NCBI RefSeq assembly: GCF_003334785.1
Contig: NZ_QOWV01000003.1
DNA: 64,000 nt
From: Escherichia coli
Lineage (GTDB): Bacteria; Pseudomonadota; Gammaproteobacteria; Enterobacterales; Enterobacteriaceae
Direction: 5' to 3' (one strand)
The position numbers were made by a program, and so were the translations under genes. The notes under the pieces are model-generated. The model was not told the origin of the DNA. It was given only the letters and a program-made list of their open reading frames with translations, and did no database searches. Of this stretch, positions 30,281 to 31,550 are shown in pieces (the first letter of the stretch is position 1; each line of letters opens with the position of its first letter).

Positions 30281-30928
30281 ATGTATCTTGATACCAGCAA
30301 CGTACAGAGCCTGAAGGAAAAGCTGCTGTTATGCGCGGTTAATGAATTTGCCGAATATGGTTATGAAGGGGCCAGGGTCGATAATATTGTTAAGGCTGCG
30401 GGGTGTAGTAAACAGACGGTTTATCATCACTTTGGTAATAAAGAAAATTTATTTATTGAAGTACTGGAATATACCTGGAACGATATTCGACAAAAAGAAA
30501 AGGCCCTTGATTTCTCAGATCTTCCGCCACAAAAAGCCATTGAGAAAATTATTGATTTTACATGGGATTATTATATTGCTAATCCCTGGTTTTTAAAAAT
30601 TGTGCATAGTGAAAATCAAAGTAAAGGTGTGCATTATGCAAAATCACAGCGTCTCTTAGAAATTAACCATGCGCACTTGCAGTTAATGGAATCCTTATTG
30701 GATGAAGGGAAGAAACACAATATTTTTAAGCCAGATATCGACCCATTGCAGGTGAATATTAATATTGCTGCGCTTGGCGGATATTATTTGATCAACCAGC
30801 ATACGCTTGGCCTGGTTTATCATATCAGTATGGTTTCCCCCCAGGCACTGGAAGCCAGACGTAAGGTCATCAAAGAGACAATCCTTAGCTGGCTTTTGGT
30901 TGACCCTTCATCTACCGCGCACGAATAA
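30281..30928 (+). CDS. TetR/AcrR-family transcriptional regulator (full length; likely corresponds to the ytfA locus)
   Basis: 215-aa product from ATG 30281; N-terminal HTH typical of TetR (…[17 protein letters not shown]…); divergent from catabolic operon. Confidence 0.85.
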
Positions 30929-31550
30929 AACTGCCATCCGGCTGGCGGGTGAACAGGACCTGTTGATTATTCCCCGTATCAATGGTTAAGCCCGTCACCA
31001 CGCCGCTGGCGTTCTGGCGGATTTTCACCATTTGCCCGTTTTGCAAATTACTCAGCGGCTTACCCGCGCCTTCTACCTGCGCCATTGCATAGACATCGGT
31101 AGCGGGCAGTCCGTGGTCGCGGAACAGCTGCGCCATCGTTTTACCGGGTTCGACACGGTAAGAGCGCCATTGATTATCAATTCCGCTATCTGGCTGGAAT
31201 GGTTGTGTTTGGGTAGTTTGCGGCTGTTCTTCTGGCTGGCCTTCCTGTATAGGTTCTGGAGCGACCGGAGCCACCTGATCAGGATCATTTTGTGGTGTGA
31301 CTAATTGCGCCCGCAGCTGTTCTTCTGTCGGCGGTTGTGATTGCGACTGAATATCTAACTGCGCTTCACGCGTCACCACCGGCGCGTTGGGCGTATCATC
31401 AGATGGAAGCAGAAATCCGACCACCAATATAATGGCGGCAATAATGATCCCCCGACGATGCATCGGCGGCAGCGGGTCCATGAAGCGAAAATTGTCCGGC
31501 GCGTGCCAGACTTTCTCCAGGGTTGGTTTTAGTTCAAAGCGCCCGGGCAT
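30912..31550 (-). CDS. ytfB: OapA/LysM-domain cell-division protein YtfB
   Basis: 212-aa product from ATG 31550; recognised as YtfB; 3' end overlaps the TetR gene 3' end by 17 bp. Confidence 0.85.

Follow-up and report, generated by a model that had tools for sequence, protein, structure and literature searches.

A full-length tetR gene beside ytfB in Escherichia coli is the intact counterpart of the K-12 ytfA remnant

Results

An intact TetR-family gene and its overlap with ytfB

The window analyzed here is a 64,000-nt stretch of Escherichia coli DNA (NCBI RefSeq assembly GCF_003334785.1, contig NZ_QOWV01000003.1; one strand, 5' to 3'). It is chromosomal, and 18 kb of it was aligned to strain 300709 at 99.95% identity. 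Within it, between rplI and ytfB, a TetR-family regulator gene (referred to below as tetR) occupies the plus strand at 30281..30928 and converges on the cell-division protein gene ytfB, which lies on the minus strand at 30912..31550 (RefSeq start at 31550; the longest open reading frame (ORF) reaches 31586). Divergent from tetR is an eight-gene minus-strand operon that extends back to the rplI terminator at 21086. The cluster forms a block of ~9.4 kb between conserved core genes and is variably present or absent among strains. E. coli K-12 carries the short gene ytfA (b4205) beside ytfB, and tetR is its full-length counterpart. Coordinates preceded by an L number refer to the loci used for comparison.

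The tetR reading frame starts with ATG at 30281, ends with TAA at 30926-30928 and comprises 215 codons. The ORF finder proposed an alternative TTG start at 30257 that lacks conservation; in seven taxa (E. coli, a divergent E. coli allele, E. whittamii, E. albertii, a further Escherichia species, Klebsiella spallanzanii and Entomohabitans), both the ATG and the Shine-Dalgarno-like block GGGGAA upstream of it are invariant. The product is identical to RefSeq WP_001299246.1 of strain 300709, where the locus is 100% identical, and RefSeq applies a TetR/AcrR regulator label to the gene in thousands of genomes. Pfam searches placed a TetR_N helix-turn-helix (HTH) DNA-binding domain (PF00440, E=3e-14) at residues 19-61, encoded at 30335..30463 on the plus strand in a region missing from K-12, and a TetR_C_29 ligand-binding and dimerization domain (PF17938, E=4.4e-30) at residues 83-201, with the model fully covered (1-119 of 119). 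The N-terminal part matches many solved TetR proteins. With both domains present and a length within ~190-250 amino acids, the gene is a bona fide member of the TetR/AcrR family. The ratio of nonsynonymous to synonymous divergence (dN/dS) was 0.05-0.10 in comparisons with E. whittamii, E. albertii, L010, K. spallanzanii, Entomohabitans and the divergent E. coli allele of L005; tetR is therefore kept by strong purifying selection and is more than a chance ORF.

The two genes share 17 bp of coding sequence tail to tail (30912..30928), with the ytfB stop codon at 30912-30914. K-12, CFT073 and strain 300709 are annotated with an identical overlap; it is not present in the L005 allele or in K. spallanzanii. 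A first-pass annotation, made from the letters of the window alone, had reported a complete 215-residue TetR protein and this 17-bp overlap, both of which hold, and had set the end of the gene at 30930, which is 2 nt too far.

Some 400 E. coli genomes falling in an 80-90% identity band (e.g. SZQ1) carry a 1.6-kb mosaic segment that comprises the tetR promoter, a tetR of 212 codons and a ytfB of 209, with no overlap (window 30100-31700; L005 11990-13660). This segment is 72-80% identical to the window, with synonymous divergence (dS) of 1.0 for tetR and 2.0 for ytfB, and its flanks are 95-100% identical. None of the alleles sampled from Escherichia, Klebsiella and Entomohabitans is closer to it, and it was therefore imported from a donor outside the sample.

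Anatomy of the K-12 deletion scar

The K-12-type locus (L001) has the order rplI, yjfZ (DUF2686, minus strand), a 270-bp spacer, a TetR pseudogene and ytfB. Older annotation gave ytfA as a 108-amino-acid ORF; it is now a partial TetR/AcrR pseudogene, which the NCBI pipeline PGAP places at L001 6002-6403 (402 nt, "missing N-terminus") and which again shares 17 bp with ytfB. By blastn, identity between K-12 and the window runs to 21086, directly after the rplI terminator hairpin (21055..21086, plus strand) that forms the left edge of the variable interval, and resumes from 30526 onward at 99.3% over 575 bp, with values of 99.7% and 99.0% in two sub-segments of the K-12 remnant, tetR'. The segment surviving as ytfA corresponds to 30527..30928 on the plus strand (residues 83-215) and begins at the first residue of TetR_C_29, so that the fragment is without the DNA-binding domain. 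Over codons 84-215 there are no nonsynonymous and three synonymous changes. ytfA thus agrees with the window gene in locus, strand, overlap, sequence of the last 402 nt (99.3-99.7%) and residues 84-215 (identical). It differs in being without codons 1-82 (and with them the whole HTH), the operator/promoter region and the operon, and in being accompanied by yjfZ and a 102-bp remnant of another gene. On position, orientation, overlap and allelic identity, the window tetR is the orthologue of ytfA.

The 102-bp remnant, designated SDR', derives from the short-chain dehydrogenase/reductase (SDR) gene, the first of the divergent operon. It corresponds to about codons 30-64 of that gene (29878..29981, minus strand) at about 80-81% identity and lies directly upstream of tetR' in K-12 in the correct order and orientation. 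Its mismatches are spread over the three codon positions (8/7/6) and include two in-frame stops, one of which is common to Escherichia sp. E1V33, whereas functional SDR orthologues differ mostly at third positions (2/2/7 and 0/1/6); SDR' is therefore a decayed pseudogene fragment. Descent of SDR' from a divergent functional allele, such as that of L005 or of another species, was considered and excluded by the even mismatches, the stops and the lack of any sampled allele closer than 85%.

Both the window and L006 contain the 8-bp direct repeat TCCGCCAC in two copies with a spacing of 541 bp. In the window, the left copy is inside the SDR gene (29982..29989) and the right copy spans tetR codons 81-84 (30523..30530), where K-12 homology resumes. 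The SDR'/tetR' junction of K-12 falls exactly at these repeats and is therefore attributed to a 541-bp deletion between them, by which tetR lost codons 1-81, the SDR gene lost its start and all of the intergenic control region disappeared. At the other K-12 junction, between the block upstream of yjfZ and SDR', lies a CAGGGA microhomology; the deletion here, of ~7.3 kb, begins a short way upstream of yjfZ and ends within the SDR gene. Locus L006 (strain Z1323CEC0004) has the order rplI, yjfZ, a major facilitator superfamily (MFS) transporter, flavoprotein, CoA-transferase, hydratase, TIM-barrel protein, SDR, full tetR and ytfB, and its yjfZ block stops at the exact position of the K-12 junction; K-12 therefore equals the yjfZ + MFS form minus ~7.3 kb and 541 bp. 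This progenitor form of the scar is still extant. The cluster of the window, which carries a tripartite ATP-independent periplasmic (TRAP) transporter module in place of the MFS gene, was rejected as the direct K-12 progenitor, since the K-12 yjfZ block ends where L006 continues into the MFS gene. The two ordered remnants of K-12 are explicable only by deletion from a cluster-bearing ancestor.

ytfA has been reported as a TetR gene that only some E. coli carry (PMC6790063) and is treated as a pseudogene in recent literature, in which CRISPR interference (CRISPRi) of ytfA changed a few transcripts (preprint 10.64898/2025.12.20.695731). Its pseudogene status was thus already known from RefSeq annotation and the literature. 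Within the library searched, queries on ytfA/yjfZ and on ytfB/rplI/TRAP returned no paper describing the cluster, the anatomy of the scar, a single ancient origin or the progenitor form. That anatomy is nonetheless ordinary comparative genomics.

Ancestry of the cluster at rplI-ytfB

Species-representative genomes were scanned for the locus. A full-length tetR orthologue next to ytfB, together with the catabolic core of the operon, was found between rplI and ytfB in five taxa: E. whittamii, Klebsiella spallanzanii and Entomohabitans teleogrylli, each with the MFS form; a further Escherichia species, labeled E. coli SCPM-O-B-8794, with the TRAP form; and E. albertii, where the contig is cut within the flavoprotein gene. 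Note that the scan relies on exact peptide words and can miss genes. ytfA itself has been reported in E. fergusonii (PMC6790063).

In every species compared, dS of the cluster genes was similar to that of the flanking genes ytfB, fklB and cycA. Values were 0.32-0.78 for the cluster and 0.37-0.42 for the flanks in E. whittamii, 0.33-0.64 and 0.44-0.52 in E. albertii, 1.06-2.2 and 1.0-1.5 in Entomohabitans, and 1.0-2.2 and 1.0-2.4 in the two other genera taken together. This equality argues against a recent insertion. No tRNA was found in window positions 15000-36000, no integrase among the annotated genes of the interval, and, when the rplI edge was compared with the tetR side, no repeats in direct or inverted orientation beyond chance-level matches of 7-9 bp. 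Taken together with an additional remnant in the expected order, microhomology at the junction and an intact state in outgroups with flank-like divergence, these comparisons indicate that the cluster and tetR are ancestral at this position, at least for Escherichia, and that the K-12 state is derived.

The most probable alternative is that the cluster and tetR are ancestral only in E. coli and its closest relatives, and that K. spallanzanii, Entomohabitans and possibly some Escherichia received them horizontally, through recombination in the conserved flanks (rplI on one side, ytfB-fklB-cycA on the other). The distribution among genera is very patchy, and the locus does recombine, as seen in the 1.6-kb tetR-ytfB import (dS 1-2, ~400 E. 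coli genomes), the exchange of TRAP and MFS modules, and the alternative cassettes after rplI. Against such transfer, cluster dS tracks flank dS species by species, the two other genera included, as vertical descent predicts, and both other genera share an extra transporter gene of the drug/metabolite transporter (DMT) type after rplI. We regard flank-mediated transfer as a minority possibility, and ancestry at least within Escherichia is retained in what follows.

The first-pass annotation had described a short TetR-like ytfA beside K-12 ytfB and had proposed that the cluster is an ancestral island of which K-12-type strains carry the deletion scar. The description was accurate, and alignment with K-12 returned similarity between ytfA and tetR, not unrelated sequence at the junction. 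The core of the proposal survives, with two ordered remnants, outgroup loci and flank-like dS on its side, and several details were added or revised: K-12 retains the decayed SDR' piece as well; the SDR/tetR junction lies at the 8-bp repeat TCCGCCAC; K-12, having yjfZ, is not simply the window minus DNA; the progenitor was the yjfZ + MFS form, not the TRAP form of the window; and the deletion is ancient and of single origin and is shared with Escherichia sp. E1V33. Its further statements, that the window strain has no recent insertion and that neither junction shows direct repeats, an integrase or a tRNA, agree with the results above.

Locus states among complete genomes and fate of the tetR remnant

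Locus states were counted in 5,426 complete E. coli genomes. The intact tetR 5' end and control region were present in 3,133 (58%) and the K-12 scar junction in 2,228 (41%). yjfZ was found in 2,513 genomes (46%), the TRAP module in 1,446 (27%) and the MFS form, which includes BL21 and CFT073, in about 1,690, roughly 300 of which also have yjfZ. About 65 genomes had other states, e.g. an IS1-mediated deletion. One of these is strain 14EC033 (L004 2969-5004), in which IS1 lies beside the MFS gene, the flavoprotein gene through tetR are deleted, and ytfB is retained, followed past its stop by just 3 bp of tetR; this is an independent route of loss. yjfZ (L001 4936-5730) is missing from the window, BL21 and CFT073; it has been reported as confined to E. 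coli and Shigella, and YjfZ has been published as a "conserved signature protein" of that group and as a quantitative PCR (qPCR) marker (PMC11057252). Its third-position GC content is low (0.37).

The remnant is interrupted by IS609 (IS200/IS605 family, tnpA + TnpB/InsQ) in 1,745 of the 2,228 scar genomes. The equivalent insertion point in the window, which is itself uninterrupted, is 30821..30822, after TTTATC. Carriers include O157:H7 and O111:H8 strains (the element lies at L003 4297-6028 and also in L086). The frequency of IS609 and a dN/dS of 0.35 in the O157 remnant argue that the remnant ORF is dispensable. In E1V33, the remnant (L012 10001-10396) has a dN/dS of 0.10 and no stop over 132 codons, next to an SDR' in evident decay. 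Such a state would not be expected of a pseudogene of that age; it could be explained by recombination with intact alleles or by recent arrival of the scar, and selection on the E1V33 fragment is of low probability.

It was also considered that the K-12 remnant is functional, either as a stand-alone ligand-binding protein (the 108-amino-acid YtfA) or as a 3' untranslated or termination region of ytfB. The K-12 copy without nonsynonymous change and the state of the E1V33 remnant beside a decayed SDR' are in line with a function, as are the reported binding of RpoD and H-NS in the yjfZ-ytfA spacer (PMC3946193) and the few transcripts altered in the CRISPRi preprint. These observations are outweighed by the IS609 insertions, the O157 dN/dS and the survival of ytfB in 14EC033 with 3 bp of tetR. 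Moreover, a simple terminator scan of 29900-31800 detected no ytfB terminator-like hairpin inside tetR, and the low divergence of the fragment is explained by recombination with intact alleles. A functional remnant is therefore considered quite improbable, and ytfA is treated here as a pseudogene.

Age and origin of the scar

Every one of the 2,228 scar genomes can be aligned over the entire yjfZ-SDR'-tetR' junction, with identities of 93.6-100%. The SDR'-tetR' junction recurs, without yjfZ, in Escherichia sp. E1V33 at 85-89% identity to K-12; the derived change CCAGC for TCCGC at the junction and an SDR' stop codon are common to K-12 and E1V33, and the shared stop and other SDR' substitutions are found among K-12, O157 and E1V33. 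SDR' is ~20% diverged from every sampled intact allele. As a yardstick, dS is 0.1-0.36 between the window and CFT073 and ~0.5 between E. coli and E. albertii. By a rough estimate from only 102 bp, the deletion would date to around or before the E. coli radiation. The scar thus arose once, is old and is not peculiar to the K-12 lineage.

Repeated independent deletions at a fragile site would account for scar and intact states within the same phylogroups, as in K-12 and BL21 (which we assume, following usual practice, to share one), and the TCCGCCAC direct repeats could promote recurrent slippage. Such events would not be expected to yield one junction throughout the scar genomes or the derived CCAGC and SDR' changes common to K-12, O157 and E1V33, while recent events could not produce the ~20% divergence of SDR' from all intact alleles, and the other losses look different (14EC033, IS1-mediated). 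Recurrent deletion is accordingly rated as highly improbable, and a single old origin is preferred.

The near-identity of tetR' to intact alleles has probably been kept by repeated homologous recombination up to the edge of homology. A further, more speculative proposal is that the intact/scar dimorphism is an ancient cross-species polymorphism kept in Escherichia by selection on substrate use, in which the loss allele spreads from lineage to lineage through homologous recombination, with tetR' as its right-hand homology arm. If true, this would explain a 402-nt pseudogene free of nonsynonymous change beside 102 bp that have decayed by 20%, and at present it is judged unlikely. A 1,283-bp contig assigned to a Collinsella sp. 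metagenome-assembled genome (L025, JAIJJM010000835.1) is 95.6% identical to the K-12 rplI-yjfZ-scar-tetR' region (L001 4811-6090); it comes from E. coli and was mis-binned into an actinobacterial assembly.

Intergenic control region and candidate operator

The SDR gene (29277..30068, minus strand; NCBIfam PRK12745, 417 bits, above cutoff) and tetR are separated by 212 bp (30069..30280), which presumably hold both divergent promoters and which are entirely deleted in K-12. This region contains a perfect 22-bp palindrome (8+6+8) at 30137..30158, ATCAACCA-tctggt-TGGTTGAT, which is invariant in the seven taxa listed above, where the surrounding intergenic sequence is 20-30% diverged. It occurs once in the 64-kb window versus 0.01 expected and was found as an exact match in eight cluster-bearing loci. 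The palindrome is probably the TetR operator. Note that the simple scan scored the same 22 bp as a terminator; a conserved operator palindrome is the better reading. More invariant blocks occur downstream (30165-30195), namely (A/G)TGATCAC, containing the palindrome TGATCA, and TTTGATAAC. They may represent promoter elements or another protein-binding site.

The following scheme is proposed. A TetR dimer most likely binds the 22-bp palindrome and, once bound, would repress the divergent eight-gene operon and probably its own gene. The operon substrate or a coenzyme A (CoA) intermediate would then bind the C-terminal domain of TetR, and repression would be lifted. We infer the regulatory link between TetR and the operon from the divergent arrangement, which is kept in three genera, from the invariant and unique palindrome, and from an alphaproteobacterial neighborhood. 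In the latter (L014), a gene for a 38%-identical TetR protein has homologues of the TIM-barrel, SDR and CoA-transferase genes within 9 kb, with an acyl-CoA dehydrogenase in the place of the flavoprotein. Alphaproteobacterial TetR homologues in general (34-40% identity) were tried as a guide to function and set aside as weak, since only this one of ~12 loci shares neighbors.

The divergent operon and its exchangeable ends

Downstream of the SDR gene, the four genes of the catabolic core (24010..29267, minus strand) encode a xylose-isomerase-like TIM-barrel protein (28425-29267), an enoyl-CoA hydratase (27639-28421), a fused family-I CoA-transferase (26088-27629) and a fumarate-reductase-like flavoprotein that binds flavin adenine dinucleotide (24010-26091). 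Their GC content is 0.50-0.55, as in the flanks. The TRAP transporter module follows on the same strand (21145..24013; dctQ 23513-24013, dctM 22169-23470, dctP 21145-22116) with a GC content of 0.40-0.45; that of tetR is 0.40. NCBIfam searches with the nine cluster proteins and YjfZ gave generic family or below-cutoff matches and no pathway name, and none at all for YjfZ. The gene content looks like a system for uptake and CoA-thioester catabolism of an organic acid.

The TRAP module alternates among strains with the single MFS transporter. The boundary of the exchange falls within the final ~300 bp of the gene for the flavoprotein (24010-24330), where identity is 65-74%, versus >94% further in (window 21087-24330; L006 13981-15760). 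The TRAP genes have a dS of 0.33-0.46 relative to another Escherichia species, and both forms are old. Alternative cassettes also occur directly after the rplI terminator: yjfZ in K-12 and L006, and an HTH gene with a frameshifted hipA-like toxin gene in CFT073. The corresponding site is empty in the window, BL21 and E. whittamii. In K. spallanzanii and Entomohabitans it holds a DMT/EamA transporter gene, with an additional 159-amino-acid ORF in Entomohabitans. Cassette coordinates are L001 4919-5897, L087 7640-9403, L011 1342-2262 and L013 407-1919.

Discussion

The whole account, in which tetR would be a constrained regulator of the divergent operon and ytfA its tail, left by one old double deletion, is assigned a probability of about 0.82. 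Several observations weigh against it. The GC contents of tetR and of the TRAP module are unlike that of the catabolic core. Close orthologues were found in only seven species representatives by the exact-peptide-word scan, with no match in Salmonella, Citrobacter, E. fergusonii or E. marmotae, although a scan of this kind does not establish absence; taken at face value, such patchy matches mean that deep ancestry needs many losses. The contrast between SDR' (80%) and the adjacent tetR' (99.7%) is explained only through a presumed history of recombination. On the regulatory side, binding, repression and ligand are all deduced from sequence, a simple sigma-70 scan (29900-31800) detected no promoter between tetR and the SDR gene, and TetR has no close characterized homologue, all of its NCBIfam matches being far below cutoffs.

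The converse history, in which the cluster is a recent horizontal insertion and the K-12 arrangement of yjfZ and a short, independent ytfA gene is ancestral, would suit the lower GC of tetR and the TRAP genes and the lack of the cluster in 41% of E. coli genomes and in most enterobacterial representatives scanned, yet it is scarcely conceivable given two ordered remnants with microhomology junctions in K-12, a K-12 fragment that starts mid-gene without the HTH domain, cluster dS equal to flank dS in four Escherichia lineages, no tRNA, integrase or repeats found, and a yjfZ reported only from E. coli and Shigella (PMC11057252). Like classical tRNA/integrase islands, the cluster is a block of ~9.4 kb between core genes that is present or absent by strain. 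Unlike them, it has no tRNA, integrase or flanking repeats and no sign of recent acquisition, and its absence is the derived state.

By gene context, the closest parallels are KstR2 of Mycobacterium and FadR of Bacillus and Thermus, which are acyl-CoA-responsive local TetR-family repressors of CoA-dependent catabolic operons; AcuR, RutR and BetI are further members of the family that respond to small molecules. The window TetR has in common with KstR2 and FadR a TetR_N HTH, an all-helical C-terminal domain, a length of ~200 amino acids, a divergent catabolic operon and an intergenic palindrome. Against the named equivalogs it scores 27-47 bits in NCBIfam, where cutoffs are 118-368 (KstR2, E=1.5e-5), so the relationship is at the level of the family and the protein belongs to none of them. 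Its best solved relative, an unnamed structural-genomics TetR protein (PDB 3npi; residues 14-207, E=1.7e-16), is itself uncharacterized and so gives no functional clue.

Much of the above is standard comparative genomics of an accessory locus subject to recombination. The status of K-12 ytfA is settled: it is the 3' end of a regulator gene that has lost its DNA-binding domain together with the probable operator and the presumed target operon. Screens of K-12 regulators that include ytfA therefore probe a pseudogene. The qPCR marker yjfZ, proposed as conserved, is present in only ~46% of complete genomes. The intact regulator and the apparent CoA-dependent acid-catabolism operon that it is predicted to control can be studied in strains such as BL21, CFT073 and Nissle 1917.

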